From positions 27,709 through 60,216 of the forward strand of contig QHTX01000127.1 in the NCBI GenBank assembly GCA_003220975.1: 32,508 nt of DNA, written 5' to 3'. Shown here one piece after another: positions 2,472 to 19,542 of this stretch. The notes under the pieces are model-generated. The model was not told where the DNA came from. It did not search any database and worked only from the letters and a program-made list of their open reading frames with translations. The first letter of the stretch is position 1. Every line of letters starts with the position of its first letter. Both the position numbers and the translations under genes were made by a program. The DNA is from Gemmatimonadota bacterium. GTDB lineage: Bacteria; Gemmatimonadota; Gemmatimonadetes; Gemmatimonadales; GWC2-71-9.

Positions 2472-3348
2472 GACGGACGCGAAACCTAGGAACGCGCGAC
2501 GGCTGGCGCTAGGGATTGTCGGCGCGGCGCTCGTGTGGCTGCTCGGCGTGTGGCCGCCGCCCGTGTGGTGGCGGGATCACTGGCCGCGCGAGACGGCGAT
2601 GATGCGAGAAGGGCGGCCGGAAGGTTGGAATGGCGGAAGGTTGGAACGTTCCAACCGTCCAACCGTCCAACCGACCGCCCTGAAGGACATCTCCCCGCTG
2701 CTCCAGCGCATGGTCATCATCGGCGAGGACTCGCGCTTTCGCACGCACCACGGGATCGACCCGGCGGAGATCGGAGACGCGCTCGGCCTGGGTCGGCGGA
2801 AGGACGCCTGGGGCACCATCGTCGCGGCGTGGCGGCAGCGCGACGCGCTCCGCGGAGCGAGCACGATCACGCAGCAGCTCGCCAAGAACCTGTACCTCTC
2901 GTCCTCGCGCAACCCGCTCCGCAAGCTCAAAGAGGCGATCACGGCGTTGCGGCTCGAGCTCGCGCTCTCGAAGGATCGCATCCTGGAGCTGTATCTGAGC
3001 ATGGCGCAGTGGGGGCCCGGGCTGTGGGGCGTGGACGCGGCGAGCCGCGCCTACTTTGGCGTGCCGCCGTCGCGCCTCGACGAGGCGCAGGCCGCCGCCC
3101 TCGCCGCGACCCTGCCCCACCCACTCACCTCCACCCCTACGTTCCGGCCCGACCGCACGCTGGCGCGGCGCGACCTCATCCTGGCTCGCTACCACGGCGG
3201 GGACGTGTACATCCCGCCGGAAGAGGAGGACACGGTACTGCTCGTGCCGCCGGTGATTGCGCCGCCCATCGAGTCGCTGAACGTTCAGCTGCGGGTGCAG
3301 GCCGACACAGCACAGGACACAGCGACCGTTCACAAGGACAGCAGCTAG
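2470..3348 (+). CDS. mtgA: Monofunctional peptidoglycan glycosyltransferase (GT51)
   Basis: ATG at 2470 (MTDAKPRNARRLALGIVGAALVWLLGV is a TM anchor). GT51 motifs IIGEDSRFRTHHGID, RGASTITQQLAKNLYL and RKLKEA. The track ORF from 2233 is an upstream extension. Confidence 0.85.
   Translation: MTDAKPRNARRLALGIVGAALVWLLGVWPPPVWWRDHWPRETAMMREGRPEGWNGGRLERSNRPTVQPTALKDISPLLQRMVIIGEDSRFRTHHGIDPAEIGDALGLGRRKDAWGTIVAAWRQRDALRGASTITQQLAKNLYLSSSRNPLRKLKEAITALRLELALSKDRILELYLSMAQWGPGLWGVDAASRAYFGVPPSRLDEAQAAALAATLPHPLTSTPTFRPDRTLARRDLILARYHGGDVYIPPEEEDTVLLVPPVIAPPIESLNVQLRVQADTAQDTATVHKDSS
2615..2680. repeat. Octamer-periodic inverted repeat element (type 2), inside mtgA
   Basis: GGCCGGAA GGTTGGAA TGGCGGAA GGTTGGAA cg TTCCAACC GTCCAACC GTCCAACC GACCGCCC. 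That is 4+4 octamers, 66 nt in total. The core GGTTGGAACGTTCCAACC is a perfect 18-bp palindrome. Confidence 0.85.
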
Positions 3349-3457
3349 ACGAGACGGGTAGACGGACAGACGGATAGCGGCGGGAAGCGAGAAGGGGTTA
3401 GGATCGAGCTCTCCTGACCCTACTCACTGGACACCGCTACCCGTCTACCCCGTCTAG
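3345..3457. terminator. Long imperfect palindrome filling the convergent mtgA/dnaN spacer; candidate bidirectional terminator built from octamer repeats
   Basis: Left arm: GACGGGTA GACGGACA GACGGATA (3353-3376). Right arm: TACCCGTC TACCCCGTC (3438-3454). Central hairpin GGGGTTAGGA-tcgagctc-TCCTGACCCT (3394-3421). The outermost CTAGAC / GTCTAG contain both genes' TAG stops. Confidence 0.55.
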
Positions 3458-4566
3458 TCCACTAGCCTTAAGGGCATGACCAACGCCATATAGCTCGCCG
3501 GGTCGTCCCAGCCGACGGGCTCGACGGTGGCCGCGCGCTCGGGGGCCTTGAAGGTGAAGCGCACCTCGTCGGTGGGCATGAATTTGAGGATCTCGAGCAG
3601 GTACTGGGCGTTGAACCCGATCTCGAGCGGCTCGCCCTCGTAGGTCACCGCGAGCTCGTCCTGGGCCTCACCCAGGTCCGGCGTCTGGACGGAAAACTTG
3701 GCCGCACCACCCGCGAACGCGAGGCGAATCCGGTGCGTCTGGTCGCTCGCCACGACGCTCATGCGCCGCAGCGCCGCCGCCATCGCCGCCTTGTCCACGG
3801 TGGCGGCCTTGTCGTTCTCCCGCGGAATCACCTGCTCGTAGTTCGGGTACGGCCCCTCGATCAGGCGCGAGAATACGAGCGTGCCGCCGGCCCGGAACCC
3901 GATGTGGTTGTCGCTGCGCGCGATCTCGATGTCGGCATCGGCGGCGAACAGCCGGCGGATTTGCTCGAGCGCCTTGGGCGGCACGATCAGATCGGCGGTG
4001 GAGCCCCCGCTCGCGGGGACATCCATCTTCGCGAGGCGATGCCCGTTGGTCGCCACCATGCGCATCCGGTCGGGCCGCAGCTCCCACAGCACGCCGTTGA
4101 GGATCGGCCGGCTCTCCTCCGTGGATGCCGCGAACGCGACGTGGCCCACGAGCTTGTGCACCACGCCCGCCGCGGCCTTCCACGCGCCGTCGAACTTCAC
4201 GGCGGGGAACGACGGGAACTCCTCCCGCGGCAGCCCTAGGAGCTTGAACTTGGAGCGCCCGCACTCGATCGCGACGCGCGACTCACCGGCGGCGGTAAAG
4301 CGCACCGGCCCGGAGGGCAACTCGCGCGCGATGTCGACCAGCTTCTTCGCGGGTAGCGTGACCGCGCCGTCTGCATCCACGTCGGCCGGTGCGGTCGTGC
4401 TCACGGCGATGTCGAGGTCGGTCCCCGAAAGGCGGAGACCGCCTCCCTGCTTCGTCGCCTCGACCAGGACGTTGGCCAGCACCGGCAGCGTCGTCTTGGC
4501 CGGGATCGCCGCCGCGACCGCGCCCAGGCCTTCCTGCAACTGCTCTCGTGTGATCGTGAACTTCAT
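3454..4566 (-). CDS. dnaN: DNA polymerase III beta sliding clamp
   Basis: 370 aa, MKFTITREQLQEGL...MPLRLVD, with typical clamp length and N- and C-termini. Lies directly downstream of dnaA. Confidence 0.95.
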   Translation of the reverse strand: MKFTITREQLQEGLGAVAAAIPAKTTLPVLANVLVEATKQGGGLRLSGTDLDIAVSTTAPADVDADGAVTLPAKKLVDIARELPSGPVRFTAAGESRVAIECGRSKFKLLGLPREEFPSFPAVKFDGAWKAAAGVVHKLVGHVAFAASTEESRPILNGVLWELRPDRMRMVATNGHRLAKMDVPASGGSTADLIVPPKALEQIRRLFAADADIEIARSDNHIGFRAGGTLVFSRLIEGPYPNYEQVIPRENDKAATVDKAAMAAALRRMSVVASDQTHRIRLAFAGGAAKFSVQTPDLGEAQDELAVTYEGEPLEIGFNAQYLLEILKFMPTDEVRFTFKAPERAATVEPVGWDDPASYMALVMPLRLVD

Positions 4567-4605
4567 CTGCCGCTATCGCCTCGCCGGGGTAAAGAAGCTA
4601 CTGCT

Positions 4606-4614
4606 ATACCCACA
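4606..4614 (+). promoter_or_regulatory. DnaA-box-like 9-mer ATACCCACA
   Basis: Matches TTATCCACA at 7 of 9 positions. Abuts the trinucleotide run. Confidence 0.4.
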
Positions 4615-4638
4615 TAGAAATACTAGTAGTAATAGTAG
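4615..4638 (+). promoter_or_regulatory. DnaA-trio-like phased trinucleotide array
   Basis: TAG AAA TAC TAG TAG TAA TAG TAG. All eight triplets are in one 3-nt phase with a central A, and six fit TA(G/A). Followed by the GC cluster AGCGCGGGG (4639-4647). Confidence 0.45.
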
Positions 4639-4742
4639 AGCGCGGGGAAATGTTCGCGAATCGGGCTAACCCATGGGCGGGGCGCGCATCGCGCTCGCGT
4701 GAGCACCTGACCCAAATGTTGGGACTGTTGGTATCCGGCCGC

Positions 4743-4794
4743 TTTCCCACGCTCCCCGCCCGTTCCCACACCCACCAACATGGCCCTTCCCACA
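4743..4794 (+). promoter_or_regulatory. Three direct DnaA-box-like 9-mers
   Basis: TTTCCCACG (4743-4751), GTTCCCACA (4762-4770) and CTTCCCACA (4786-4794). Each matches TTATCCACA at only 6 of 9 positions, but they share the core TTCCCAC. Confidence 0.4.
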
Positions 4795-4800
4795 TGTTGG

Positions 4801-6183
4801 CTAGAGTGCGGACAACTCCTGGCGCGCCATCTCGACGCGCTCCTTGAACGTCCGGTCCCGCATCATCTGCCGCTCCACCTTGTCCACTGAGTGGATCACC
4901 GTGGAGTGATCTCGCCCCCCGAATGCCTGTCCGATCTCGACGAGCTGCATCCCCAGCATGTCCCGCGCGAGGTACATCGCCACCTGGCGCGGGATCGTGA
5001 GCGTCTTGGTGCGCGCCTTGGAGCGCAGGCCCTCCGGGGTGACGCCCCAGCGCCGCGCGACGACTTCCTGCACGCGATCGATGCTCGGGGTCGGTTGCGT
5101 GTAGCTCGCGCCCTCCTCCCCCTGCCGGATCTTGTCCGACAGGGCCTCCCGCGCGAGTTCGATCGTCACCTCGCGGTTCTTGAGCGACGCGAACAGCAGC
5201 AGCTTGATGATGCACCCCTCGAGCTCGCGCACGCTCTGCCGGACGTGCTCGGCGATGAAGCGCAGCACGTCGTCGGGGATCGTGAGCTCGAGATGGTCCT
5301 GCTCGGCTTTCTTCCGGAGGATCGCGATGCGGTGCTCGAGGTCCGGATGCCCGATGTCGGCCACGAGCCCCCACTCGAACCGCGAGATCAGGCGGTCTTC
5401 CAGGCCCGGGATCTCCTTGGGGGGGCGGTCCGACGTGAGCACGATCTGCTTGTGCCCCTCGAACAACGCGTTGAAGGTGTGGAAGAACTCCTCCTGCGTC
5501 ATTTCCTTGCCTTCGAGGAAATGCACGTCGTCGACGAGGAAGAGGTCCACGTCGTTGCGGTAGCGGCGCCGGAACTCGGACATCGTGCGCGCGTGGATCG
5601 ACTCGATCACCTCGTTGATGAACTGCTCGGCGCCGAAGTAGTGCACGCGCGTCCCCGGGTATTTCTTGAGCACCGCATGCGCGATCGCCTGCATCAAGTG
5701 CGTCTTCCCCAGGCCGGTCGCGCCGTAGATGAACAGCGGGTTGTACGTCTTGCCCGGCGCCTCGGCGACGGCGTGCGCCGCGGCGGCCGCGAGCTCGTTC
5801 GACTTCCCGATGACGAAGGTCTGGAAGGTGTAGCGCTCGTTGAGCGGCGTCGTGGGCACGGCCGCCTTGTCGCCCCCCGCCCCCGGCTCGCGCGGCGCCA
5901 CGAAGAAGTCCATCTGCGGTCGTTGCTGCCGATCTTCCTGCACGCGGAACACGACCGCCGTGGGGCGACCGAACACGCGCTCGGCGGCGCGCGCCAACAC
6001 GCTGGCGTGCTTCGACTCGTTCCACTCGACCGCGAACTGGTCCGGTGCGCCGACAATCAGCCGGTCGTCGTCCAGCGCGATCGGCACCGCCGGCTCGAGC
6101 CAGGTGCGGACCGTCGCGTCGGGAAGTTCGCGCCGCGCTTCGTCGAGCAGGCGCTTCCAAGCTTCCTTAGTAGACTGCTCCAT
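4801..6183 (-). CDS. dnaA: Chromosomal replication initiator DnaA
   Basis: Walker A GATGLGKTHLMQAI, Walker B LVDDVHFL, and C-terminal DNA-binding region GGRDHSTVIHSVDKV. 460 aa. Confidence 0.97.
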   Translation of the reverse strand: MEQSTKEAWKRLLDEARRELPDATVRTWLEPAVPIALDDDRLIVGAPDQFAVEWNESKHASVLARAAERVFGRPTAVVFRVQEDRQQRPQMDFFVAPREPGAGGDKAAVPTTPLNERYTFQTFVIGKSNELAAAAAHAVAEAPGKTYNPLFIYGATGLGKTHLMQAIAHAVLKKYPGTRVHYFGAEQFINEVIESIHARTMSEFRRRYRNDVDLFLVDDVHFLEGKEMTQEEFFHTFNALFEGHKQIVLTSDRPPKEIPGLEDRLISRFEWGLVADIGHPDLEHRIAILRKKAEQDHLELTIPDDVLRFIAEHVRQSVRELEGCIIKLLLFASLKNREVTIELAREALSDKIRQGEEGASYTQPTPSIDRVQEVVARRWGVTPEGLRSKARTKTLTIPRQVAMYLARDMLGMQLVEIGQAFGGRDHSTVIHSVDKVERQMMRDRTFKERVEMARQELSAL

Positions 6184-6225
6184 CCGCGAATGACGAGAGG
6201 TGGGACGTCCAGCAAGGGCGGCCCG

Positions 6226-6254
6226 AAACTACGGCTCGCTTGTGGAAAAGTCAA
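6226..6254 (-). promoter_or_regulatory. Predicted sigma70-type dnaA promoter
   Basis: The minus strand reads TTGACT-17 nt-TAGTTT, about 36 nt upstream of the dnaA ATG. Confidence 0.45.
6241..6249 (+). promoter_or_regulatory. Near-consensus DnaA box TGTGGAAAA
   Basis: Matches TGTGGATAA at 8 of 9 positions. Sits in the spacer of the predicted dnaA promoter, which fits autoregulation. Confidence 0.55.
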
Positions 6255-6256
6255 CC

Positions 6257-6286
6257 TTGACCCGCGCGCCGACCCCGGTGTACGTT
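6257..6286 (+). promoter_or_regulatory. Possible rpmH operon promoter
   Basis: TTGACC-18 nt-TACGTT. Its -35 lies 2 bp from the dnaA -35 on the opposite strand. Confidence 0.35.
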
Positions 6287-6308
6287 TCCCGCCTCACGAG
6301 AGGAATTT

Positions 6309-6470
6309 ATGGGCCCGACCTATCGCCCGCGCAATCGGCGGCGCATCAATAAACACGGATTTCGGGCGCGGATGAAAACAGTATGGGGCCGCGCCGTCCT
6401 GTCCCGCCGGCGGAAGAAGGGCCGCAAGCGCCTCACCGTCCGCCTGCCGTCCAAACACCGGAGCCGGTAA
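6309..6470 (+). CDS. rpmH: 50S ribosomal protein L34
   Basis: Not in the ORF track (53 aa). My translation is [53 protein letters not shown]. It carries the L34 hallmark (YQP-like, RxHGFRxRM, GRKxL). SD GAGAGGA lies upstream. Canonical position before rnpA. Confidence 0.9.
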
Positions 6471-6493
6471 CGGCACAGCGGTTTCCGCGCCGC

Positions 6494-6808
6494 GTGCGCC
6501 TCGCCCGCGGCTCGGAGCTGACAGCCTGCTGGGATCACGGTCGCCGCTTGCGCACTCGGCATCTCGACCTGGCGTGGCGCTCGAATCGTGCGGGCCACCC
6601 GCGGATGGGAATCATCGTACCTCGCTTCCAGTTCACCGCGGTAGCCCGCAATCGGTTGCGCCGCCGCCTGAGAGAGATTCTTCGACGCGAGGCGCTCGCG
6701 TCGCTGCCCGCCGTCGACCTCGTCGTGCGCGCGAATCGCTCCACCTACTCCGCCGCGTTTACCGTCCTCCGCGCCGAATTGACGAGCGTCGTGAGCCGCC
6801 TCACATGA
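6494..6808 (+). CDS. rnpA: Ribonuclease P protein component
   Basis: Motifs [15 protein letters not shown] and LDLAWR..., with the expected position after rpmH. The start is uncertain. GTG 6494 avoids overlap with rpmH. The track ATG 6383 would overlap rpmH by 88 nt. Confidence 0.8.
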
Positions 6809-7032
6809 ACGTGCGTCGCTGGCCGCGGCTGGCGGTCATGGCACTGATCCGCGCGTACCAGCTGACGCTGTCCCATCTGGTGTTCACGCAATGTCGCTTC
6901 ACGCCTTCGTGCTCGCACTACGCGTTCGAGGCGGTGGAGCGCTATGGCGCGCTGCGCGGGTCGTGGCTCGGCGTGAAGCGCATCCTCCGGTGCCACCCGC
7001 TGCACCGGGGCGGCTACGATCCGGTGCCCTGA
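6805..7032 (+). CDS. yidD: Membrane protein insertion efficiency factor YidD
   Basis: MNVRRWPRL...[46 protein letters not shown]. The ATG overlaps the rnpA stop (ATGA). Confidence 0.9.
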
Positions 7033-7041
7033 GAGCGGCTC

Positions 7042-8712
7042 GTGGAACGACGCGTCATTCTGGCAATCGTCCTGATGCTCATCGTGGCCGTGCTGCCGAG
7101 CATCCTGGTTCCTCGGAAGAAGCAGCCGGTTAGTCGGATCGGCGGATCGGCGGATAGTACCCGTGCGGCTCGGGAGAGCGTGGCGGCGCCTCCGGCGACA
7201 GCCCAACGACCATCCGGCTATCCGCCTACCCGCCTATCCGCCACCAAGGCGGAGACCGTGTGGGTCACCTCCCCACTCTACCGCCTCGGGTTCAGCACAC
7301 AGGGCGGGGAGCTGGTGTGGGCGGAGCTCACGGGCTACCGGTCGTTCGCGCCTCAGGACTCGGGCCGCCCGGTGCAGCTCGTGCCCCAGGGAGTGCCGCT
7401 ACTCGCCTCCGCCCTGACGGCGGGCGGGGACACGGTGAGTCTCGCGGACTGGCACCTGATGCCGAGCGCGTCCGCGCTTCGGGTGGGCCAAGACACCGTC
7501 ACACTGAGGTTTACGGCGTCGCGCGGCGGGGCGGATCTGAGCCTGGAGTACCGCTTTTTCCCCGGGGAGTACGACTTCCAGGTGCGCGGCCAGGTTGCCC
7601 GGCCCGGGGGTGGCGGCGGCGCGACGCTGCTGGTCGGCTTGGGGGACGGCGTCCGCTCGGTCGAAGCCGATTCGATCGACGACTTCCGGCACTACGCGGT
7701 CGTGACGAAGGCGGCGAAGACGCAGAGCACCGCGTTCTTGAAGCCCGGCGAGCGCAAGGTGCTCGACGGGCCGTTCGAGTGGGCGGGCGTGAAGTCCAAG
7801 TACTTCTTCGTCGCCGCCCTGGCGATCGCGGAGAACCAACCACAGTTCGGCGGCGGCATCGCCATGGGCGGGCCGAGCAGCGTGACGGCCTCCTCGCTGT
7901 TCGGCAAGTCGGGGGTGGCGACGCGCACCGCCCTGGCGCTCACGCTCCCCGTCCCCCCCGCCGGGGCCTTCGGCTACGACGTGTACGTCGGCCCGCTCGA
8001 GTATCGGCGGCTCGCGCGTCTCGGCCACGACCTGGACGACGCCAATCCCTACGGCGGGTTCCTGCGGCCCATCATCCAACCGGTGTCCGTCCTGGTGGTG
8101 AACATCCTCATCTGGATGCACGACCGGTTGAGTCTCGCGTACGGCTGGGTGCTCATCATTTTCGGTGTCCTGATCCGCGTGCTCCTCTGGCCGCTCAACC
8201 AGAAGGCGATGGAGTCCAGCATCCGGATGCAGGCGGTGGCGCCGCTGCTCCGGGACGTGCAGCAGCGGTACAAGGCCGAGCCGGAGCGACTGCAGCGCGA
8301 GACCCTGCGGATCTACAAGGAGCACAACGTCAATCCGCTCGGCGGCTGCCTCCCGATGCTGTTGCCCCTGCCCGTCCTGTTCGCCCTTTTCTTCGTGTTC
8401 GCGAACACCATCGAGTTCCGGGGTGTGCCGTTCCTCTGGCTGCCCGATCTCTCGCGGCCGGACCCGCTCTACATCATTCCACTGGTGATGGGGCTCTCGA
8501 TGTTCGCCGTGTCGAAGCTCGGCCAGATTGGCGTGCCCCCCAACCCGCAGACGAAGACCATGTTGTACTTCATGCCGGCGTTCATGACGCTGTTGTTCCT
8601 GCGGTTCGCGTCGGGTCTGAACCTGTACTATGCGGTGCAGAACATCGTGAGCCTGCCGCAGCAGTACCAGATCGCGATGCGGCGCATGCGGGAGCAGGGA
8701 AAGCGAACCTAG
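7042..8712 (+). CDS. yidC: Membrane protein insertase YidC
   Basis: N-terminal TM, a large periplasmic domain, and a C-terminal Oxa1-like core (WPLNQKAMES..., NPLGGCLPMLLPLPVLFALF). 556 aa. Confidence 0.95.
   Translation: MERRVILAIVLMLIVAVLPSILVPRKKQPVSRIGGSADSTRAARESVAAPPATAQRPSGYPPTRLSATKAETVWVTSPLYRLGFSTQGGELVWAELTGYRSFAPQDSGRPVQLVPQGVPLLASALTAGGDTVSLADWHLMPSASALRVGQDTVTLRFTASRGGADLSLEYRFFPGEYDFQVRGQVARPGGGGGATLLVGLGDGVRSVEADSIDDFRHYAVVTKAAKTQSTAFLKPGERKVLDGPFEWAGVKSKYFFVAALAIAENQPQFGGGIAMGGPSSVTASSLFGKSGVATRTALALTLPVPPAGAFGYDVYVGPLEYRRLARLGHDLDDANPYGGFLRPIIQPVSVLVVNILIWMHDRLSLAYGWVLIIFGVLIRVLLWPLNQKAMESSIRMQAVAPLLRDVQQRYKAEPERLQRETLRIYKEHNVNPLGGCLPMLLPLPVLFALFFVFANTIEFRGVPFLWLPDLSRPDPLYIIPLVMGLSMFAVSKLGQIGVPPNPQTKTMLYFMPAFMTLLFLRFASGLNLYYAVQNIVSLPQQYQIAMRRMREQGKRT
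7125..7242. repeat. Octamer-periodic inverted repeat element (type 1), inside yidC
   Basis: Left arm: GCCGGTTA GTCGGATC GGCGGATC GGCGGATA (7125-7156). 54-nt spacer. Right arm: CATCCGGC TATCCGCC TACCCGCC TATCCGCC (7211-7242). Confidence 0.8.
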
Positions 8713-8745
8713 GGAAGCGGGAAGCGCGAAAGGGTAAGGGGCAGG

Positions 8746-10089
8746 GTGCTGTCGGATCCGATCGTCGCGCTGGCCACGCCGGCGGGTCGTTCCGCCCTCG
8801 CTCTCATCCGGCTGTCGGGGAAGGCCGCGTTCGACGTCGCCGCCCGCGCACTCCGTCCGTTTCGCCCCGACCCGCCTCGCGTCGTGCGCCGCGTCCGGCT
8901 CGTCCATCCCGACAGCGGCGAGCTCGTCGACGACGCGCTCGCGGCGGCGTTCCCCGGCCCGCGCACGTACACCGGCGATGACCTGGTCGAGATCACGACG
9001 CACGGCGGGCTGCTGGTGCCGGCGGCCGCCGTGGCCGCGCTCGTCGCGGCGGGCGCCCGGCCGGCAGCGCCGGGCGAGTTCACGCGACGCGCCGTGCTCA
9101 ACGGCAAGCTCGACCTGCTCCAGGCGGAGGCGACGGCGGACCTGATCGACGCGGGCGCACCCGCGCAGGCGCGCCGCGCGCTGCACCAGCTCGACCGCGG
9201 TCTGTCGGCGCGGCTCGAGCTGCTGCGGGCCGAGCTGCTCGAGCTCGAGGCGCTGATCGCCTACGAGATCGATTTCCCCGAAGAAGACGAGGGCCCCGTG
9301 GCGCCGGAGCGGGTGGAGCGCGCCTGGCGCGCGGCGCGCGACCGGATCGCCCAGCTGCTCGCGACCGCGCCTGAGGGTGAGCGGTTGCGCGAAGGCGCGC
9401 TCGTGGTGATCGCCGGGCGGCCCAACGCCGGCAAGTCCTCTCTCTTCAACGCGCTGCTCGGTACCGAGCGCGCGATCGTGACCGAGATTCCCGGGACGAC
9501 ACGCGACGCGATCGAGGCCCACGCCGTGATCGAGGGATTCCCGTTTCGACTGGCGGATACGGCCGGGCTGCGCGACAGCGGGGACCGCGTCGAGCGCCTG
9601 GGGATCGAGGTCTCGCGGAGGTATCTCGGAGCGGCGGACCTGGTTCTCTATTGCGAAGAGGCCGGGGACGAGTCCGCGCGTGAAGAGTTTCTGACGCGAG
9701 TCCATGCTCCCGTCGTCGTCGTCCGCACCAAGATCGACCTGCGCCCACGGTCCGACCGTCCGACCGTCCGACCGACCGTCGCGGTCTCGGTGGTGACGGG
9801 GGACGGGCTCGCGGAGCTGAAGCGCCGCCTCGCCCAGGAGGCGTTCGGGCGCTTGCTCGGCCTCGGCGACGTGGAGCCCGTGGTGACGCGGGCGCGGCAC
9901 CGCATGGCGCTCGAGCGCGCCCTCGCGGAGGTCGAGGCGTTCCACGGGGCGCGCGCGGGCGGGGTCGAGGCCGCGGCGGCGGCGACGCATCTCCGCGCCG
10001 CCGTCGGCGCGCTCGACGATCTGATCGGCGTCGTGACGCCGGACGACGTGCTGGACCGCGTGTTCGCGAGCTTTTGCGTTGGGAAATGA
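8746..10089 (+). CDS. mnmE: tRNA modification GTPase MnmE
   Basis: G1 GRPNAGKSSLFNAL, G3 DTAGLR, G4-like RTKIDL, and the C-terminal FCVGK tetrapeptide motif. Confidence 0.95.
   Translation: MLSDPIVALATPAGRSALALIRLSGKAAFDVAARALRPFRPDPPRVVRRVRLVHPDSGELVDDALAAAFPGPRTYTGDDLVEITTHGGLLVPAAAVAALVAAGARPAAPGEFTRRAVLNGKLDLLQAEATADLIDAGAPAQARRALHQLDRGLSARLELLRAELLELEALIAYEIDFPEEDEGPVAPERVERAWRAARDRIAQLLATAPEGERLREGALVVIAGRPNAGKSSLFNALLGTERAIVTEIPGTTRDAIEAHAVIEGFPFRLADTAGLRDSGDRVERLGIEVSRRYLGAADLVLYCEEAGDESAREEFLTRVHAPVVVVRTKIDLRPRSDRPTVRPTVAVSVVTGDGLAELKRRLAQEAFGRLLGLGDVEPVVTRARHRMALERALAEVEAFHGARAGGVEAAAAATHLRAAVGALDDLIGVVTPDDVLDRVFASFCVGK
9750..9781. repeat. Octamer tandem array (type 2 half-element), inside mnmE
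   Basis: GTCCGACC x3 then GACCGTCG. Nearly identical to the right arm of the mtgA element (GTCCAACC GTCCAACC GACCGCCC). The partner arm is only degenerate. Confidence 0.7.
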
Positions 10090-10093
10090 GGCG

Positions 10094-11724: not shown

Positions 11725-11737
11725 CGCTCCATCCCGG

Positions 11738-12493: not shown

Positions 12494-12969
12494 TGAGGCT
12501 TGCTCTGCAGGTCGGACAGCCGGTGTGGTCGGCCCGGCTTGAGCCAACCGTCGCTCCGTGCCTTGACGTAGGTGTACAACTCGTAGATCGCCGAGGTGTC
12601 GAGCAGCACCTTCCACGCGGGCATGCCCTTGGCCGCGCGGCCGTTGAGAGCGGTGCTGACGAAGCTGTCGAGCGGGAAGCTGCCACCGGTGGGATTGAGA
12701 GCCCAGCGCAGGTCGGGCGCCGCCGGGTTCACGCCACCGATCGCGTCCTCACCGTGGCAGCGGAAGCAGTACACGTGGAACCACTTCCAGCCCTGATACA
12801 CGGAGTCGGACACGAGCAGGCTGTCCCGCACGGTGTCCCGCGCCGGCGCCGCGGCCGTCGCAGCGAGCAGCAGGAGGGGGGAGCTCCCGTGTGGCGCGCC
12901 CGCGATCGCGGCCGCGGCCATGACGCAGGCGCCGACCAGGCCGCCCCGCACGAAATGCTTGTTCCTCAC
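12490..12969 (-). CDS. xoxG: Mono-haem c-type cytochrome, XoxG-like candidate electron acceptor
   Basis: Signal peptide and a single CFRCH haem-binding motif. Positioned after xoxJ. SD GGGAGGGA precedes the GTG at 12969. Confidence 0.7.
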   Translation of the reverse strand: MRNKHFVRGGLVGACVMAAAAIAGAPHGSSPLLLLAATAAAPARDTVRDSLLVSDSVYQGWKWFHVYCFRCHGEDAIGGVNPAAPDLRWALNPTGGSFPLDSFVSTALNGRAAKGMPAWKVLLDTSAIYELYTYVKARSDGWLKPGRPHRLSDLQSKPQ

Positions 12970-13001
12970 GTACGTCCCTCCCTGAGCTTGACGGTGAACG
13001 G

Positions 13002-13826: not shown

Positions 13827-13876
13827 GGTTCTCCCTGTTGATCCCGCAGAAGACGATGGAAGTGCCAGAGATACTA

Positions 13877-13914
13877 CACCCGGTGCCGGAGCACGTTCGC
13901 TCCGGCACCGGGTG
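13877..13914 (-). terminator. Perfect 16-bp stem-loop between xoxF and xoxJ (attenuator or mRNA-stabilising hairpin)
   Basis: CACCCGGTGCCGGAGC-acgttc-GCTCCGGCACCGGGTG. The arms are exact reverse complements. Begins 28 nt downstream of the xoxF stop. No clear U tract follows. Confidence 0.6.
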
Positions 13915-13941
13915 ACTACTGTGCTGCGTGCTGCTCCTGCC

Positions 13942-15711
13942 TCAAGGCAGGCCGAACACCACCAACGTGCCGCCTGCGTTGCTCATGTTGGTGTAATCGC
14001 TGAACGCGCCGATCGCTCCGAGTGCGGCGGTCGGATCTTCCGGACCGATGCCGAGCGCCACGCCGGCGCCCGCCCAGCCGCCGATGCCCGAGAGCACGGC
14101 GACGTACTGCTTGCCGTCCGGCCCGGTGTAGGTCATCGGGTTGCCGATGATGCCCGACGGGCACTTGAACCGCCACAGCTCCGTGCCGGTCCTGGCGTCG
14201 ATAGCCTTCAGCCAACCTTCCATCGTTCCGTAGAACACCACGCCGCCCGCCGTCGTCAGCACGCCGCCGTACGCCGCGAGGTTCTCCTTCAGGTCGAACT
14301 TCACCTTGCCGACCGTCGGATCCCACGCGATGAACCGGCCACGGTTGCCGCCCGGGCCCGGGAACATGCGCACGATCGCGCCGACGTAGGGCTGACCGGC
14401 CGAGTACTTCACTTCCACGCCCTCATAGTCCATGCAGATGTTGTTGACCGGGACGTAGAACCAGCCGGTTTGCGGGGAGTACGCCGACGGCTGCTGATCC
14501 TTGAAGCCGATCGCGGCCGGGCAGATCCCCTCGGTGTTCTTCTTCGACGTGGTCCCGTACTGCGGATTGCGCACCGGGACGCCCGTCGTCAGGTCGATGC
14601 TCTTGGCCCAATTCACCGGCCCGTAGGGCTCGGCCACCAGCACCTTCCCGTTCGTCCGATCGAGCGTGTAGCCGAAGCCGTTGCGGTCGAAGTGCGCCAG
14701 CGCCTTCACCGGCTTCCCGCCGATCGTCAGGTCGACCAGGACGTTCTCGTTGACGCCATCATAGTCCCACTCGTCGTGCGGCGTCATCTGGTACGCCCAC
14801 TTCACCTCCCCGTTGTCGGGATTGCGGGCGAAGATCGTCATCGACCACTTGTTGTCGCCGGGCCGCTGATCGGGGTTCCACGTCCCCGGGTTGCCCGAGC
14901 TGTAGTAGAACAGGTTCAGCTGCGGATCGTAGGAGTACCAGCCCCAGGTGGTCCCGCCGCCGTGCTGCCACTCGTCGCCCGTCCAGGTGCTGACGCCGAG
15001 ATCCTTGCCGCGGTGGGAGGCATAATTGGGGTTGGCATCGCCGGTGATCTTCACGTCGGCGTCGGGCCCGGTGGAATACCCGCGCCACAGCTCCTTGCCG
15101 GTGTTCACATCGTACGCCGTCACGCGGCCGCGCACGCCGAACTCACCCCCCGAGATCCCCGCGATCACGATGTCCTTGATCACGATCGGGGCGTTCGTCA
15201 TCGTCGAGCCGGTCTTGTAGTCGGCGTTGGGCACGCGCCACAGCTGCTTGCCCGACTTCGCATCCAGCGCCAGCAGGTCGCCCGCGAGCAGCTCGATGAA
15301 CAGCTTGCCGCTCGGGTGGTAGGCGAGACCACGGTTTACCAGGTCGCAGCACGCGATCGGCTTTGCTTCGTCGGGCTGCTTCGGCTGGAACCTCCAGATC
15401 ATCGGCGCGCCCGGCTTCGTCAGATCGAGCGCGAACACGATATTCGGGAAGGCGCTGTGCACGTACATCACGTTGCCGATCACCAGCGGATTCCCCTCAT
15501 GGCCGTTCAGGACGCCGGTGGAGAACGTCCATTTGGCGACGAGGTTCTTCACATTCGCCCGGTTGATCGAAGCGAGTGGGCTGTACCGCTGCAGGTCGTA
15601 CGTCCGACCTGTCATGGTCCACTCGCCCGGCGCCTGGGCGGCGGCGGACGCCGCGACGAGTACCATCAGACTCGCCGCGAGTCCACCGGAACACAGTTTG
15701 AAGCGGTCCAT
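13942..15711 (-). CDS. xoxF: PQQ-dependent methanol/ethanol-family dehydrogenase, lanthanide (XoxF) type
   Basis: Signal peptide, vicinal disulphide ACCD (KPIACCDLVNRG), and W-rich propeller repeats. Active-site stretch HDEWDYDGVNE carries the extra Asp (DYD) typical of XoxF, whereas MxaF has DYA. No small-subunit gene is adjacent. Confidence 0.92.
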   Translation of the reverse strand: MDRFKLCSGGLAASLMVLVAASAAAQAPGEWTMTGRTYDLQRYSPLASINRANVKNLVAKWTFSTGVLNGHEGNPLVIGNVMYVHSAFPNIVFALDLTKPGAPMIWRFQPKQPDEAKPIACCDLVNRGLAYHPSGKLFIELLAGDLLALDAKSGKQLWRVPNADYKTGSTMTNAPIVIKDIVIAGISGGEFGVRGRVTAYDVNTGKELWRGYSTGPDADVKITGDANPNYASHRGKDLGVSTWTGDEWQHGGGTTWGWYSYDPQLNLFYYSSGNPGTWNPDQRPGDNKWSMTIFARNPDNGEVKWAYQMTPHDEWDYDGVNENVLVDLTIGGKPVKALAHFDRNGFGYTLDRTNGKVLVAEPYGPVNWAKSIDLTTGVPVRNPQYGTTSKKNTEGICPAAIGFKDQQPSAYSPQTGWFYVPVNNICMDYEGVEVKYSAGQPYVGAIVRMFPGPGGNRGRFIAWDPTVGKVKFDLKENLAAYGGVLTTAGGVVFYGTMEGWLKAIDARTGTELWRFKCPSGIIGNPMTYTGPDGKQYVAVLSGIGGWAGAGVALGIGPEDPTAALGAIGAFSDYTNMSNAGGTLVVFGLP

Positions 15712-15770
15712 AGCTTACCTCATGAGGATGGTGAAAAACGATCTACGCTACTTTGCCCGTGCGAGTCCCA

Positions 15771-15797
15771 GGCCTTCGGGGACGTTCCCCGGAGGCC
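15771..15797 (-). promoter_or_regulatory. Near-perfect palindrome/hairpin in the xoxF 5' leader
   Basis: GGCCTTCGGGGAcgtTCCCCGGAGGCC, with one mismatch in an 11-12 bp stem. Confidence 0.4.
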
Positions 15798-15870
15798 CGC
15801 GCTCCCACCAGGCCACAGCCATCGTCCGAGTCCTCATACCGGATACCGGGATTGCAGCCTTGGGATAGTG

Positions 15871-15899
15871 GTTATATCCCGCGGCGCCGCCCCTGTCAA
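15871..15899 (-). promoter_or_regulatory. Predicted strong sigma70-type xoxF promoter
   Basis: The minus strand reads TTGACA-17 nt-TATAAC. This implies a leader of about 150 nt before ATG 15711 (SD GAGG). Confidence 0.55.
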
Positions 15900-15919
15900 T
15901 CAGCAGGGGAAACCTCGAT

Positions 15920-15932
15920 TTTCAGCCTGAAA
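15920..15932. promoter_or_regulatory. 13-bp palindrome TTTCAGCCTGAAA upstream of the xoxF -35
   Basis: TTTCAG-C-CTGAAA, centred about 30 bp upstream of the -35 centre. Overlaps the mptG stop codon. Confidence 0.3.
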
Positions 15933-16896
15933 CGGGGGCGTCGTCGCGCCACACCCGCGCTCCGGCGGCGCTGAAGCCCCCTTCGTAGACCATCCCCCCG
16001 CCCGCCTGCTCGAGCACGCCGCGCGCGCGCTCGGCCAGCGCCCGGGATGCCGCCTCCTCCCCCACGATGCCGTACACGGCGGGGCCCCACGAGCTCTGCC
16101 CCACGCCCACCGCCCCCCACTCCCCCAGCCGCGCCACCAGCTGCGCCGTCTCGCCCGGCGCGAACACCCCGCCCTGGACGGGCGCGAACCAGCCGCCCGT
16201 GATCCGCTGCACCTCGGCGAGCGCCGCGCCGAATGCCGGGAGATCGGCGTCGGCGAGGGCCGGGAGCAGTTGCATCAGGACGAGGTGCGCGACGCGCTCG
16301 ACTTCGCGGGCGGGGGGCGGGGGTAGCCGGGCGAAGGCCGCCGCCTCCTCGTCGCCCGCGAGCCCCGGCTGGCCGCGCGGCACGACCACCACCGAGCGCC
16401 ACGCCGGGGGCATGGGGAGCCGGGCGAGCAGGGGGGCGACGCCGTCGGCGCCCGGGCGGCGGCCGCCCTCGAGCACGAAGCCGCCGTACGCGAACGTCCA
16501 CGTCCCGATGGCGGAGCGCCGCCCGCGATCCACGGCGCGCGCCAGTGCCGACACCTCCGGCGAGAGCCCATGCAGTTCGGCGATCGCCCGCGCCACCGCG
16601 AGTGCGAGCTGGGTGCCCGAGCCGAGCCCGGCGTGCGCGGGGATGGCGCGGTGCACGCAGAAGCGAACCCGCGGCGCGATGCCGTGGTGGGCGGCGAACC
16701 GCCGGGCGAACGCGAGCACCCGCTCCGCTTCTGCGGGAGGTCCCTCGGCGTCCAGGGCGGCCGCCGGCCGGGCTTCGAGCAGCAGCGAGGGCGCCGGCAC
16801 CGCGGCGCCGATCCCGCCGAACCGCCGTCCCAGGTCGCCGCGCAGATCGAGCACGCCGAAGTGGAGGCGGGCCGGCGCCTCGACGAAGATCCTCAT
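15922..16896 (-). CDS. mptG: Beta-ribofuranosylaminobenzene 5'-phosphate synthase (first committed H4MPT step)
   Basis: MRIFVEAPARLHFGVLDL..., with the GHMP-like loop PAHAGLGSGTQLALAV. The ATG at 16896 overlaps the upstream stop (ATGA). Confidence 0.85.
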   Translation of the reverse strand: MRIFVEAPARLHFGVLDLRGDLGRRFGGIGAAVPAPSLLLEARPAAALDAEGPPAEAERVLAFARRFAAHHGIAPRVRFCVHRAIPAHAGLGSGTQLALAVARAIAELHGLSPEVSALARAVDRGRRSAIGTWTFAYGGFVLEGGRRPGADGVAPLLARLPMPPAWRSVVVVPRGQPGLAGDEEAAAFARLPPPPAREVERVAHLVLMQLLPALADADLPAFGAALAEVQRITGGWFAPVQGGVFAPGETAQLVARLGEWGAVGVGQSSWGPAVYGIVGEEAASRALAERARGVLEQAGGGMVYEGGFSAAGARVWRDDAPVSG

Positions 16897-17450
16897 CGCG
16901 CGGCGGGTGCGAGGCGCACGTAGTCCGTGAGCAGCGCCATCGCTTCGCGCTCGCGCGGGCCCGCGGTCTTGTCCACGATCACCTGCAACCGCGCGAACTC
17001 GTCGCGGATCTGGTCGGGCGGCAGGAGGTGGGTCCGCGTGGCGAGGATCGCCGCCTCGAGCACCGCGTTGCGCGCGCGGTTGAAGCCGAGAAACTCGCGC
17101 CGCACGCCGCGATGCACCACGCCCGTGACGACGCGCGCGCGGGGCGGCGTGGCGTCGAGCGAGCGGACCCGGACTTCCCGCCAGGAGCACGCCGCCTCGA
17201 GCACCACGCCGCGCACCACCGTGGCCGGCGCCGCCGGGAACTGAGCGTTGGAAATCGCGCCTTGGGCGAACAGCATCACGTCGTCGGTCAGGTTCACCAC
17301 CGCGGCACCGGTCGCCTGCAGGTTGCGAAAGGTCGTGGTCTCGAGGAACGGCTTGAGGACGATTTCTTCCTCGCCCCACTCCACGCCCATCGGGGCGAAG
17401 TTGACCGCTCCCCCCGCGTCCAGGGTGGTGAGGATCGATTCGATGATCAC
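16893..17450 (-). CDS. DUF447-like protein typical of H4MPT gene islands
   Basis: MIIESILTTLDAGGAVNFAPMGV..., the expected size (185 aa), and its context between pabA and mptG. GTGA overlap with pabA. Confidence 0.65.
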   Translation of the reverse strand: MIIESILTTLDAGGAVNFAPMGVEWGEEEIVLKPFLETTTFRNLQATGAAVVNLTDDVMLFAQGAISNAQFPAAPATVVRGVVLEAACSWREVRVRSLDATPPRARVVTGVVHRGVRREFLGFNRARNAVLEAAILATRTHLLPPDQIRDEFARLQVIVDKTAGPREREAMALLTDYVRLAPAAR

Positions 17451-18079
17451 GGGACCAGTTCGACTGCCAACCCCGCGCCGTCGGCGCGGTCGGGGAGGGC
17501 GTCGCGCCGCGAGGCCGCGCCGTGCAGGAAACGGTCGAGCAGGACGTAGCCGTGCTCGGTGAGCACGGACTCGGGATGGAACTGCAGCCCCGTGACCGGG
17601 TGACGGACGTGCTCCACGGCCATGATCTCGCCATCTTCCGCCGTCGCGGTGACGCGCAACTCGGCCGGCAGCCCCGCCCGGGCGATGGCGAGCGAGTGGT
17701 AGCGGGCGGCCGGGAACGGGTTCGGGAGCCCGGCGAACAGGCCGCGCCCGTCATGCGCGATGCGGGACGGCTTGCCGTGCACGGGGCGCCCGGCGCGCGC
17801 GATGCCGGCGCCGTACGCCGCCCCGATGCACTGGTGCCCGAGGCAGACGCCGAGGATGGGGATCGTGGGGCCGAAGCGGCGGATCACCTCGATCGAGATC
17901 CCGGCTTCGGCCGGCGAGCAGGGCCCGGGTGAGATGATGATGCGGGACGGGTCGAGCGCCGCGATCTCGTCCGGCGTCGTGGCGTCGTGGCGTCGCACGA
18001 CGGCCTCTTCCCCCAGCTCTCGGACGTAGCGGGCCAGGTTGTAGACGAACGAGTCGTAGTTGTCGATCAGCAGGATCAT
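17447..18079 (-). CDS. pabA: Glutamine amidotransferase, aminodeoxychorismate/anthranilate synthase component II
   Basis: MILLIDNYDSFVYNL, catalytic GVCLGHQ, and HPES. ATGA overlap with pabB. Confidence 0.85.
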   Translation of the reverse strand: MILLIDNYDSFVYNLARYVRELGEEAVVRRHDATTPDEIAALDPSRIIISPGPCSPAEAGISIEVIRRFGPTIPILGVCLGHQCIGAAYGAGIARAGRPVHGKPSRIAHDGRGLFAGLPNPFPAARYHSLAIARAGLPAELRVTATAEDGEIMAVEHVRHPVTGLQFHPESVLTEHGYVLLDRFLHGAASRRDALPDRADGAGLAVELVP

Positions 18080-19542
18080 GGCGTCAGAGCGGCGACGAGC
18101 CCGCGCGCCTTGTCGAGGGTCTCGCGGTACTCCTGCTCGGGATCGGAGTCGGCCACGATGCCGCCGCCGACCTGAAAATACACGTCGCGGCCGAGCACCA
18201 GGTAGGTGCGGATCACGATGTTCGTGTCGAGCGCGCCCGTGACGCTCACATAGCCGATCGCGCCGCAATACGCGCCGCGCGCGGTGGGCTCGAGCTCCGC
18301 GATGATCTGCATCGCGCGCACTTTCGGGGCGCCCGTGATCGAGCCGCCCGGAAAGGCCGCCCGCAGCAGGTCCACGCCATCGTGCTCCGGCGCGAGCTCG
18401 CCCACGACGGTCGAGACCATGTGATGCACCGTCGCGTAGTGCTCGATGGCGAACAGCTCGGGCACGCGCACCGTGCCGGGGCGGCACACCCGCGACAGGT
18501 CGTTCCGGAGGAGATCCACGATCATCACGTTCTCGGCCCGGTCCTTGTCGCTCTCGGCGAGCGCGAGGGCGAGGGCCGCGTCGTGCTCTGGCCCCACGCC
18601 GCGCGGCCGGGTGCCCTTGATGGGCCGGGTCTCGACCTGGCGGCCGTCGTGCACCCGCAGGAACCGCTCGGGAGACGAGCTCGCGATGACCACGTCGCCG
18701 CAGTCGAGGAATGCGGCGAACGGCGCCGGATTGCGTCGCCGCAGCCGCCGGTATAGGTCGAGCGGCGTGCCGGCGAGCGGCGCCTCGAGCCGCTGCGACA
18801 GGTTCGCCTGAAAGATGTCGCCCGCGAAGATGTACTCGATCACGCGGGCGACCGCGTCGAGGTAGCCCTCGCGCGTGAAGTTGGAGCGCACGCCGGGGAC
18901 GCCGGGGACGGGATACGAAGGGGCGGATAGGCGGTTAGCCGGATAGGCGGTTAGCCGGTTAGCAGTGCTGTTACTATCCGCCCATCCGCCTATCCGCCTA
19001 TCCCTCAGCCGCTCCTTCACGAATGTCAGCCGCCGCGCCGCGCGGTCGGTTCGAGCCGTCCCTCGCTCGGGGATCCCCGTCGAGATCACCCACGCCCGCC
19101 CGGCGGGATGGTCCCACGCGATCACCCAGTCATACAGGCCGAGCAGCACGTCGGGGAGTGCGTAATCGTCGTAGCGCGGGCGCGGCACGCGCTCGAGCGT
19201 CGCTCCCCAGTCGTATCCCAGGTAGCCCGCGGCGCCGCCCTGAAACGGGGGGAGGTCCGCCAGCGGCTCCGCCGCGTGCGGCGCGAGCAGCGCGCGAGCA
19301 TGCGTCAGGGCGTCCGGCTCCACGCGCACCCAGCGCCCATCCACGAGCTGCTGCGTCAGGAGGGCCTTCGAGCGGACGGCGCTCCAGGGGTCGGCCGTGA
19401 GAAACGAGTGACGGCCGAGGTGCTCCGCGTCGGTGGCGCTGTCCAGGAACACCAGGGACGGCAACCCTGCGAATCGGACGCACGTCTCGAACGGGTCGGG
19501 GGCGGGGACGAGCTCCTCGACGAGCGGCCGCGCGTCGCTCAC
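18076..19542 (-). CDS. pabB: Aminodeoxychorismate synthase component I
   Basis: Chorismate-binding motifs SPERFL, PGGSITGAPK and RGAYCGAIGY. GTG 19542 overlaps the upstream stop (GTGA). The track start at 19653 is an extension. Confidence 0.85.
   Translation of the reverse strand: MSDARPLVEELVPAPDPFETCVRFAGLPSLVFLDSATDAEHLGRHSFLTADPWSAVRSKALLTQQLVDGRWVRVEPDALTHARALLAPHAAEPLADLPPFQGGAAGYLGYDWGATLERVPRPRYDDYALPDVLLGLYDWVIAWDHPAGRAWVISTGIPERGTARTDRAARRLTFVKERLRDRRIGGWADSNSTANRLTAYPANRLSAPSYPVPGVPGVRSNFTREGYLDAVARVIEYIFAGDIFQANLSQRLEAPLAGTPLDLYRRLRRRNPAPFAAFLDCGDVVIASSSPERFLRVHDGRQVETRPIKGTRPRGVGPEHDAALALALAESDKDRAENVMIVDLLRNDLSRVCRPGTVRVPELFAIEHYATVHHMVSTVVGELAPEHDGVDLLRAAFPGGSITGAPKVRAMQIIAELEPTARGAYCGAIGYVSVTGALDTNIVIRTYLVLGRDVYFQVGGGIVADSDPEQEYRETLDKARGLVAALTP
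18910..19004. repeat. Octamer-periodic inverted repeat element (type 1), inside pabB
   Basis: GGGATAcgaagg. Left arm: GGCGGATA GGCGGTTA GCCGGATA GGCGGTTA GCCGGTTA. 13-nt loop. Right arm: TATCCGCC CATCCGCC TATCCGCC TATCCC. Confidence 0.85.

Follow-up and report, generated by a model that had tools for sequence, protein, structure and literature searches.

Why should housekeeping genes carry, in frame, long hairpins assembled from tandem octamers, and what could keep such structures at the same places in a chromosome? The question is raised by a stretch of 32,508 nucleotides (nt) from an uncultured soil bacterium of the Gemmatimonadales, in the phylum Gemmatimonadota (assembly GCA_003220975.1, contig QHTX01000127.1, positions 27,709 to 60,216), referred to below as the window, in which arrays of 8-nt units, paired at four loci with a complementary array, lie within mtgA, yidC, mnmE and pabB and fill the spacer between mtgA and dnaN. 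That the feature is real, widespread and evolutionarily persistent is well supported, and the mechanism behind it is only partly resolved. The elements appear to represent a Gemmatimonadota-wide and apparently undescribed class of hairpins whose arms are tandem 8-base repeats. The reading that we favor, and hold on balance to be probable, is that they are vertically inherited, lineage-wide chromosomal hairpins that change in place as units are gained and lost, the intergenic copies acting as hairpins of RNA 3' ends and the intragenic ones being tolerated. The genome architecture of Gemmatimonadota, which abound in soil, has received little study, and the elements appear to define many gene ends, the stop codon lying inside the repeat; they also break assemblies and mislead gene callers.

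Anatomy of the elements and their host genes

The window was scanned for periodic self-similarity, at least 14 self-matches in 16 positions being counted as an array. Seven period-8 arrays were obtained, against a mean of 0.07 and a maximum of one in 200 triplet shuffles, and there were zero arrays of period 7, 9, 10 or 12. At 15 of 16 self-matches, period 8 alone yields runs among the periods from 4 to 15. Tandem Repeats Finder places its period-8 calls at 2619-2673, 3352-3377, 7135-7155, 7212-7242, 9750-9778, 18924-18963 and 18974-19003. Both the sequence itself and these calls recover the five loci that an earlier note on this DNA had marked out.

The elements consist of 8-nt, sometimes 7-nt, G-rich units of the GGCGGWTA or GGNNGGAN type, a spacer, and a complementary C-rich array (Table 1). 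Because the order of G-arm and C-arm is constant, single-stranded DNA or the transcript of either strand can form a long stem that tolerates shifts of register. The earlier note had described octamer arms facing reverse-complement arms throughout; this holds for four loci (mtgA, the mtgA/dnaN spacer, yidC and pabB), whose arms are present and whose RNA folds have z-scores of −2.4 to −5.5 against shuffled sequence, whereas the mnmE locus (9750-9781) is a single arm that has no partner and does not fold (z +0.07). In the mtgA hairpin, an outer stem pairs GGGCGGC with GCCGCCC. The mtgA/dnaN element has, between its arms, a spacer with an inner stem of its own, and its outermost units are themselves stop codons, the TAG of mtgA being 3346-3348 and that of dnaN the complement of 3454-3456. 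The pabB units carry TGG or TAT where TAG or TAA would be in frame, both in the window and in the related contig L127. The heptamer array behind yidC, which the earlier note does not list, begins at the TAG stop of that gene and runs into further G-runs before the mnmE start; GGGAAGCGGGAAGCGCGAAAGGGTAAGGGGCAGGG, after the same stop, also matches a G-quadruplex motif.

Table 1. Repeat elements of the window, their arms, and the genes that host or flank them (z, z-score of the RNA fold)
Feature	Position	Strand	Units or remarks
In-frame hairpin in the mtgA linker, just past the N-terminal membrane helix	2610..2681	+	fold −42.5 kcal/mol, z −5.2
mtgA hairpin, G-arm	2619-2647		GGAAGGTT/GGAATGGC/GGAAGGTT/GGAAC
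mtgA hairpin, C-arm	2648-2676		GTTCCAAC/CGTCCAAC/CGTCCAAC/CGACC
Hairpin occupying the entire spacer of convergent mtgA and dnaN	3346..3456	none	z −5.5, both strands
mtgA/dnaN hairpin, G-arm	3346-3377		TAGACGAG/ACGGGTAG/ACGGACAG/ACGGATAG
mtgA/dnaN hairpin, C-arm	3434-3456		CTACCCGT/CTACCCCGT/CTA
In-frame hairpin in the YidC linker, between first transmembrane helix and periplasmic domain	7125..7242	+	z −2.4
yidC hairpin, G-arm	7129-7158		GGTTAGTC/GGATCGGC/GGATCGGC/GGATAG
yidC hairpin, C-arm	7212-7242		ATCCGGCT/ATCCGCCT/ACCCGCCT/ATCCGCC
G-rich heptamer array in the yidC-mnmE spacer, single arm	8710..8733	+	GGGAAGC, GGGAAGC, GCGAAAG; z +0.66, no hairpin
Single C-rich octamer array in frame, loop between G4 (TKIDL) and G5 (VSVVTG) of MnmE	9747..9781	+	GTCCGACC x3.6
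In-frame hairpin in the PabB linker, between N-terminal and chorismate-binding domains	18910..19004	−	z −4.8
pabB hairpin, G-arm (+ strand)	18922-18963	+	GGCGGATA/GGCGGTTA/GCCGGATA/GGCGGTTA/GCCGGTTA
pabB hairpin, C-arm (+ strand)	18974-19003	+	CTATCCGC/CCATCCGC/CTATCCGC/CTATCC
mtgA, monofunctional transglycosylase	2470..3348	+	Pfam PF00912
dnaN	3454..4566	−	Pfam; stop codon inside the C-arm of the intergenic hairpin
yidC	7042..8712	+	Pfam
mnmE	8746..10089	+	Pfam
pabB, PabB-like aminodeoxychorismate synthase component I, 488 residues	18076..19542	−	Pfam chorismate-binding

The host genes were identified with Pfam, which also confirms DnaA in the window; the mtgA start (ATG 2470) was deduced from its translation and from orthologues, whose N-termini are of the MADAKPRN type, whereas the gene calls in databases begin farther downstream. 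All the repeat-encoded peptides are linkers, namely those past the membrane helix of MtgA and YidC, the G4-G5 loop of MnmE and the interdomain segment of PabB; the placing of four copies in frame in variable linkers is borne out by Pfam, the translations and the orthologues. The public gene calls in near-identical contigs (L001-L006) disagree, with yidC at 484 or 545 residues and mtgA at 212 or 245; the callers apparently choose starts downstream of or inside the hairpins.

A few further runs were noted in and near the window. The period-8 run at 17971-17997 (GGCGTCGT x3) was judged unrelated, since it forms no hairpin (z 0.16), has no G/C skew and belongs to conserved coding sequence; it lies within the N-terminus of a GATase (pabA-like) gene and is probably ordinary coding sequence. 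The segment 16001-17000 has 78% G+C and contains heptamer-like runs, C-rich at 16098-16125 and G-rich at 16306-16326, which lie about 180 nt apart in the order C then G, the reverse of that in the family. About 3.3 kb upstream of window position 1, at 17858-17882 of contig L001, an array of the GACGGAAAG type is situated close to the start of a 687-residue open reading frame (ORF), and a diverged version of it is present in the sister strains.

Orthologous sites, close strains and the wider family

A scan of metagenomes with a YidC alignment provided 80 orthologous neighborhoods, 753 kb in total, with YidC identities of 64-99%. They contain 142 arrays of period 8 and 54 of period 7, compared with 0 and 1 in triplet shuffles, and at most one array for the periods 9-13. 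The arrays are confined to about seven recurrent orthologous positions in about 14 kb (up to 52 loci), which include the mtgA linker, the mtgA/dnaN spacer, a site just upstream of yidC, the yidC linker, the yidC/mnmE spacer (heptamer arrays in 11 of 52 loci) and the mnmE loop. The flavor of the unit is specific to the site, as illustrated by NNAGACGS throughout the mtgA/dnaN spacer. The earlier note had reckoned with orthologues that share the peptide segments and lack the nucleotide repeats; the orthologues carry the two together.

The yidC linker gives the most detailed view of pairing. Across 48 distinct orthologous sequences the mean z is −3.9 and the best −9.4, compared with −0.12 for a control of the same length from the same gene. 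The unit changes from lineage to lineage (GGCGGATA, GGGCGGAC, GGTCGGAC, GGCGGACA), and the C-arm changes along with it. When the stem of a single member (L143) is projected on the alignment of these related sequences, pairing in register is found in 76.8% of the cells, against 26-51% with the partner slid by 1-3 columns, and double-sided changes occupy 99 cells, against 62 ± 6 after shuffling (0 of 500 shuffles reach 99). Exchanges between CG and UA occur at columns 26:8, 27:9 and 23:11. The linker peptide itself varies, reading RIGG...YPPTRLS in one lineage and RRTGG...RPPVRPS in another.

The other sites vary more in length and content. The orthologous mtgA linkers measure 39-81 nt, with a mean z of −2.5 compared with +0.5 for controls, and the mtgA/dnaN spacer ranges across species from abutting stops (TAGCTA) to hairpins of 151 nt. 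At the pabB site, the in-frame stops are likewise replaced (TGG, TAT) in the GGCGGTTA-type hairpin of a species with 79% amino-acid identity, a relative at 82% has a degenerate G-arm only, and in a relative at 92% (L126, about 3520-3640) an unrelated palindrome with 19-nt arms, GGGACGCGCGGGGTCTCCC ... GGGAGACCCCACGCGTCCC, is nested between remnants of the octamer arms. In that last case the palindromic character has been retained and the content replaced.

Such persistence of pairing suggests the alternative that the intragenic hairpins are selected structures of mRNA or DNA, which might, for example, slow the ribosome after the signal-anchor helix of YidC and MtgA or act on the half-life or processing of the mRNA. 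Selection of this kind would fit the hairpin potential of yidC and mtgA, which persists at 64-99% amino-acid identity as the peptide changes freely, the compensatory changes in the arms, and the location of the hairpin about 5-20 codons past the first membrane helix in both proteins. However, MnmE and PabB are cytoplasmic and yet carry the element, and the MnmE copy cannot fold; the yidC hairpin has decayed in several lineages (L161, L162, L175, L180 and L197, z near −1) with the linker kept; close relatives hold at the pabB site an unrelated palindrome or a degenerate array; and a mutational drive by template switching would yield the same covariation with no function. We consider direct selection on the intragenic hairpins quite improbable.

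At shorter evolutionary distances, a DnaN identical to that of the window is found on 25 public contigs, which come from soil metagenomes and one NCBI metagenome-assembled genome (MAG), and the close PabB relatives are annotated as Gemmatimonadetes or Gemmatimonadales. Four contigs are 99.9% identical to the window, and two represent a sister strain at about 97.7% identity. Between strains the repeat loci are hot spots of divergence, with 13-39 differences per 100 nt compared with a mean of 2.4, and they hold most indels of the region, the others being a 15-nt insertion in mnmE and indels just past the mnmE stop. One contig (L006) has an additional octamer, CGAGACGG, in the mtgA/dnaN element (+8 nt); the mtgA linker of the sister strain is shorter by 12 nt with the frame kept, and its mnmE site is made of other units (CTAACCGS/CTGTCCGC); PabB variants at 97-98% identity have exactly 8 residues fewer, which amounts to three octamers (24 nt) of one arm. 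Length changes between strains of 97-99% identity comprise +8 nt between genes and −12 and −24 nt within them.

These data bear on the possibility that the arrays are chance low-complexity sequence, an artifact of assembly or the outcome of selection on a repetitive peptide. A G+C content of about 70% in the host genome and the low-complexity character of the host linkers would speak for it, but the shuffles yield essentially no arrays and identical repeat sequences recur in independent JGI, ENA and NCBI assemblies. Moreover, no selection on a peptide can turn its downstream part into the reverse-complement translation of its upstream part, and the same architecture occurs between genes. The probability that we assign to this explanation is next to nil.

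The extent of the family was explored with the pattern CGGWTAGSCGGWTAGSCGG in one genome per species (185,579 species); the counts are lower bounds, and the pattern is biased toward units that contain stops. The further genomic copies expected by the earlier note were found in large numbers, at least 119 loci, and 58 of the matches listed come from 32 Gemmatimonadota genomes, all MAGs. Among the matches listed, the Gemmatimonadota arrays outgrow the search pattern, with 3 to more than 12 units and GGCGGTTA as the dominant one, and several reach contig ends. An inverted partner lies within 200 nt of 45 of the 112 listed Gemmatimonadota arrays, compared with 8 of the 72 listed from other phyla, and in the listed paired elements the G-rich arm comes first in 16 and the C-rich arm in 0. 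Three tandem copies of GGCGGTTA place TAG in all three frames and, on the complement, TAA in all three frames; 43 of the 112 listed arrays are closed in all six. A scan of viral contigs with the unit pattern gave 5 matches, too few to be informative.

The ORFs around these loci were called from the G+C content at third codon positions, which leaves their 5' ends approximate (cruder callers were too noisy). Of the 78 elements listed, about 20 begin no more than about 10-25 nt from a stop codon and have their G strand as the sense strand, and genes that read into a C-arm are almost absent around these 78; about 8 elements are located inside genes and another 8 or so between divergent genes. The window fits this rule for gene ends at the stops of mtgA, dnaN and yidC. 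Some arrays have other settings. In a divergent promoter region (L031, 618-709), about eleven TAACCGCC units end 14 nt before the ATG of a gene for a ClC-type channel, and several further single arrays lie 10-25 nt upstream of starts with the C strand as sense, an anecdotal observation given the approximate 5' ends. In the MAG M8-44_Bin_155, tandem repeats of about 135-150 nt (L055, 6147-6450; L084, 7595-7796) each consist of a TAACCGCC array and a conserved flank, and constitute a higher-order repeat made from octamer arrays. Outside Gemmatimonadota (L008, L050, L060, L073, L085, L117 and others), tandem GCCGGTTA, GCCGGATA or GGCGGTTA occurs mostly as single arms, in Desulfobacterota, Omnitrophota (38-40% GC), Bacteroidales, Patescibacteria, Pandoraea, Streptomyces and others; these arrays may or may not exceed what arbitrary tandem octamers would give, and the favored reading does not account for them.

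The dispersal of the loci is relevant to the proposal, made as an alternative in the earlier note, of an origin-proximal array of protein-binding sites. The arrays would then be bound either by DnaA or a nucleoid protein near the origin, or by a protein oligomer that binds RNA or DNA and recognizes a motif at every 8-nt step; TRAP and HutP are analogues for a binder of UAG-N5-type repeats. Of the six elements in the window, five fall in the 10 kb on its dnaA side (a post hoc count, with a binomial p of about 0.012), an excess that the favored reading does not explain; the unit type is common to the phylum, and canonical units offer a TAG every 8 nt. In addition, the paired octanucleotides of Geobacter have been read as sites of IHF/HU-type global regulators (PMC2700814). 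Against this, the elements occur, among the matches listed, on many contigs of the 32 genomes that are unrelated to dnaA, coding copies exist with no TAG at all, and a step of 8 bp does not match the turn of the DNA helix. Nor are the units DnaA boxes. Only one 9-mer near dnaA (6241-6249) comes within one mismatch of TTATCCACA, the flanks of dnaA (4567-4800 and 6184-6382) contain no DnaA-box cluster, and no origin is evident in the window. Furthermore, the units vary between sites in a genome and between species at a site, which is hard to reconcile with one sequence-specific binder. The origin-proximal array is not supported, and protein binding in general appears very improbable to us. CsrA-type GGA repeats, Chi/KOPS octamers, telomere-like repeats and G-quadruplexes were also considered, and none of them found support in the analysis.

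The operon of pabB (window 15900-22200; L126-L129) is conserved and contains genes for 4HFCP synthase (PF04476), pterin-4a-carbinolamine dehydratase, a DUF6513/pterin-binding protein, the GATase, a DUF447 protein and a GHMP-kinase-like protein. Such a combination of genes recalls the biosynthesis of methanopterin- or methanofuran-type cofactors, here in Gemmatimonadales.

Inheritance, turnover and possible roles

The comparison of orthologous loci indicates that the elements are not currently moving and are inherited vertically at fixed sites, which are either the 3' ends of genes, where the TAG of the outermost unit is the stop, or permissive linkers within genes. Turnover inside these sites is quick, by plus or minus 8 nt between genes and by frame-preserving changes only within them. 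The gain and loss of units may be ascribed to replication slippage. A correction from arm to arm, either by template switching inside the hairpin or through selection for pairing, would explain how the octamers can drift with the arms still complementary. Template switching tends to perfect quasi-palindromes.

All six frames are closed by stops in canonical units, which makes the canonical form untranslatable and intergenic. Its position at stops and between convergent genes, without U-tract terminators nearby, points to a hairpin of the RNA 3' end, and termination or protection from exonucleases is its most likely role. A scan for consensus promoters and terminators returned nothing at the elements and no canonical terminators nearby. 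The earlier note had called the mtgA/dnaN copy a terminator; it does fill the spacer of two convergent genes, but it has no T-run and is not a canonical terminator. The intragenic copies are probably tolerated, mutation having removed the stops that would fall in frame. The encoded peptide would then be a passenger, the pairing of the nucleic acid being what many species appear to retain, and the linkers of yidC, mtgA and pabB would offer a natural case of conserved arm pairing with freely changing amino acids.

Several observations weigh against this account. The role of terminator or stabilizer has been derived from position and sequence, and single arrays (in mnmE, in the yidC/mnmE spacer, and many in other genomes) cannot act as hairpins. 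RNAalifold predicts a mere 7 pairs and no single consensus for 37 yidC linkers, because the arms pair in different registers in each species; the counting of pairs on the structure of one member, L143, is itself biased, and relatedness among the sequences inflates the covariation statistics. Elements are also gained and lost: the mtgA/dnaN spacer is empty (TAGCTA) in at least two clades, and the array in mnmE is an insertion, 8-9 codons long and confined to a subclade, judged lineage-specific because the outgroup loop is short (SGGEG). The units of yidC and mtgA are slightly more similar within a genome than between genomes (p = 0.017), a hint of some force that acts genome-wide. Finally, slippage alone accounts neither for the limitation to periods of 7-8, nor for a G-rich unit shared by the phylum, nor for the strict order of G before C.

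Some of these points would be expected from non-autonomous mobile elements, in the manner of miniature inverted-repeat transposable elements (MITEs) or of REPINs, the hairpin-forming pairs of repetitive extragenic palindromes (REPs). A transposase encoded elsewhere, either of the REP-associated tyrosine type (RAYT/TnpA-REP) or similar to IS5 with a CTAG/TA target, would bind the tandem units and insert the hairpin at gene ends and at times into genes. The weak sharing of units between sites of one genome, the lineage-specific mnmE array, and the CTAG at both flanks of the mtgA/dnaN element together with the empty TAGCTA site of other species are consistent with such a history, as is the dispersal, among the matches listed, over many contigs per genome, with arrays at contig ends that suggest a high copy number. 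Stops supplied by the repeat, a place downstream of ORFs and in-frame copies are hallmarks of GTAG-tagged REPs (PMC3733652), and insertion sequences (IS) lie at a constant distance from the analogous octanucleotide pairs of Geobacter (PMC2700814). On the other hand, the same few orthologous sites are occupied in dozens of species, with no scattered new insertions in about 14 kb of up to 52 loci; the unit flavor follows the site instead of a genome-wide master sequence; the spacers are unconserved between elements; and the 8-nt unit is itself non-palindromic and present in 3 to more than 12 copies per arm. The CTAG flanks belong to the repeat unit and are thus not diagnostic of a target duplication. 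Neither the window nor the 21-kb loci showed a transposase or RAYT gene. We regard mobility as rather unlikely.

The hairpins might also be more than passive repeats and form a register-tolerant system of hairpin punctuation, in the fixed order G then C, kept by a dedicated mechanism or by selection general to Gemmatimonadota, a proposal that we make tentatively and consider doubtful. Gene ends could in that case be marked by stops in all frames combined with a terminator or 3'-end structure that hides unpaired C-rich RNA from Rho, and essential genes, such as yidC, could conserve a structure that the ribosome must translate through. The step of 7-8 nt would be the footprint of a specific enzyme or binding protein. 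Vertical inheritance with turnover in place remains the reading that we prefer.

Comparison with known systems

In the searchable literature there was no paper with these repeat strings and none on octamer, REP or MITE repeats in Gemmatimonadetes, and Rfam 15 gives zero matches in the window at gathering score. The analogy with REPs, MITEs and Rickettsia palindromic elements (RPEs) drawn in the earlier note stands in part: in-frame REPs and RPEs are the nearest analogues, but the presence of the same sites in dozens of species does not fit recent insertions in the manner of MITEs.

REPs supply TAG stops, lie downstream of ORFs and occur inside genes (PMC3733652), and the present elements have the same location behind ORFs, a repeat end that is the stop, and occasional in-frame copies. 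The likeness extends to bacterial interspersed mosaic elements (BIMEs) and REPINs, including those with GTAG and CGTC tags: all are short G+C-rich palindromic repeats, found mostly 3' of ORFs and between convergent genes. REPs, moreover, often form inverted pairs with spacers of 20-100 bp, have been proposed to form RNA hairpins, and have in-frame copies in housekeeping genes (PMC3733652). The REP unit, however, measures 20-40 bp and is itself a palindrome with a stem of 5-13 bp, whereas here the unit is a non-palindromic 8-mer (sometimes a 7-mer) and pairing takes place only between arrays; since the unit is not a stem-loop, the defining feature of a REP is missing. The REP tag (GTAG or CGTC) stands outside the stem. 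GTAG and GACG are found in the intergenic units (GGGTAGACGG), but in every unit and paired, and other sites have ATAG, TTAG or no TAG. There is also no family-wide consensus or master sequence, and the sites are orthologously fixed.

MITEs have terminal inverted repeats and a target-site duplication; inverted arms are present here, and CTAG occurs on both sides of the mtgA/dnaN element, but as part of the unit. MITE copies also have internal sequence in common and insertion polymorphism at non-orthologous sites, whereas here the spacers are unrelated between elements, and the arrays occupy about seven recurrent orthologous sites (up to 52 loci). RPEs and the intragenic REPs of Opitutus terrae resemble the intragenic copies as in-frame palindromes tolerated in housekeeping genes, encoding about 20-50 residues in permissive regions. 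RPEs, in contrast, are 100-150 bp long, have a conserved consensus and are dispersed by insertion, whereas here the unit type alone is shared, the arms are tandem and the positions are conserved across species. Eukaryotic foldback transposons have long inverted arms of short tandem repeats with variable copy number, and are kilobase-scale, mobile elements with target duplications; no evidence of such mobility was found for the elements described here. They do not behave as the phase-variable repeats of contingency loci, in which a change in unit number turns a reading frame or promoter spacing on and off, as the intragenic variants (−12 and −24 nt) keep the frame and the hosts are housekeeping genes. 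With intrinsic terminators they share the hairpin and not the T-run, which is compatible with termination without a U-tract.

The heptameric short tandemly repeated repetitive (STRR) sequences of cyanobacteria form hairpins for which a stabilization of transcripts has been proposed (PMC2670836). Like that of the present elements, their period is short and not divisible by three (7 bp), and they too are lineage-wide and intergenic and form hairpins, e.g., at hupS-hupL; heptamers also occur here. The resemblance is one of kind only, since STRR heptamers belong to heterocystous cyanobacteria and the elements described here to Gemmatimonadales, with a period of mainly 8 and GGCGGWTA or GGNNGGAN as the unit. 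A limited literature search gave no report for STRRs of a G-then-C order, of a stop-codon rule, or of conserved, covarying in-frame copies in essential genes.

In Geobacter metallireducens, tandem octa- and heptanucleotides form paired sites, with 8 to 24 pairs per class, that are putative IHF/HU 'global regulator' sites (PMC2700814). There, too, 3-5 tandem units of 7-9 nt per site pair with the opposite strand at variable distance, and a heptamer family (GGACCGG x4) lies within and between genes. The units (GTTGCTYN, TCTCCGTS, MTYCTGA) are unrelated to those described here, the case concerns a single species with IS at constant distance, and the description came without evolutionary or structural analysis (PMC2700814). 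Together with the cyanobacterial STRRs, the Geobacter octanucleotide pairs and the intragenic REPs, the Gemmatimonadota elements may make up a general class, that of hairpins with tandemly repeated arms and a repeat period not divisible by three.

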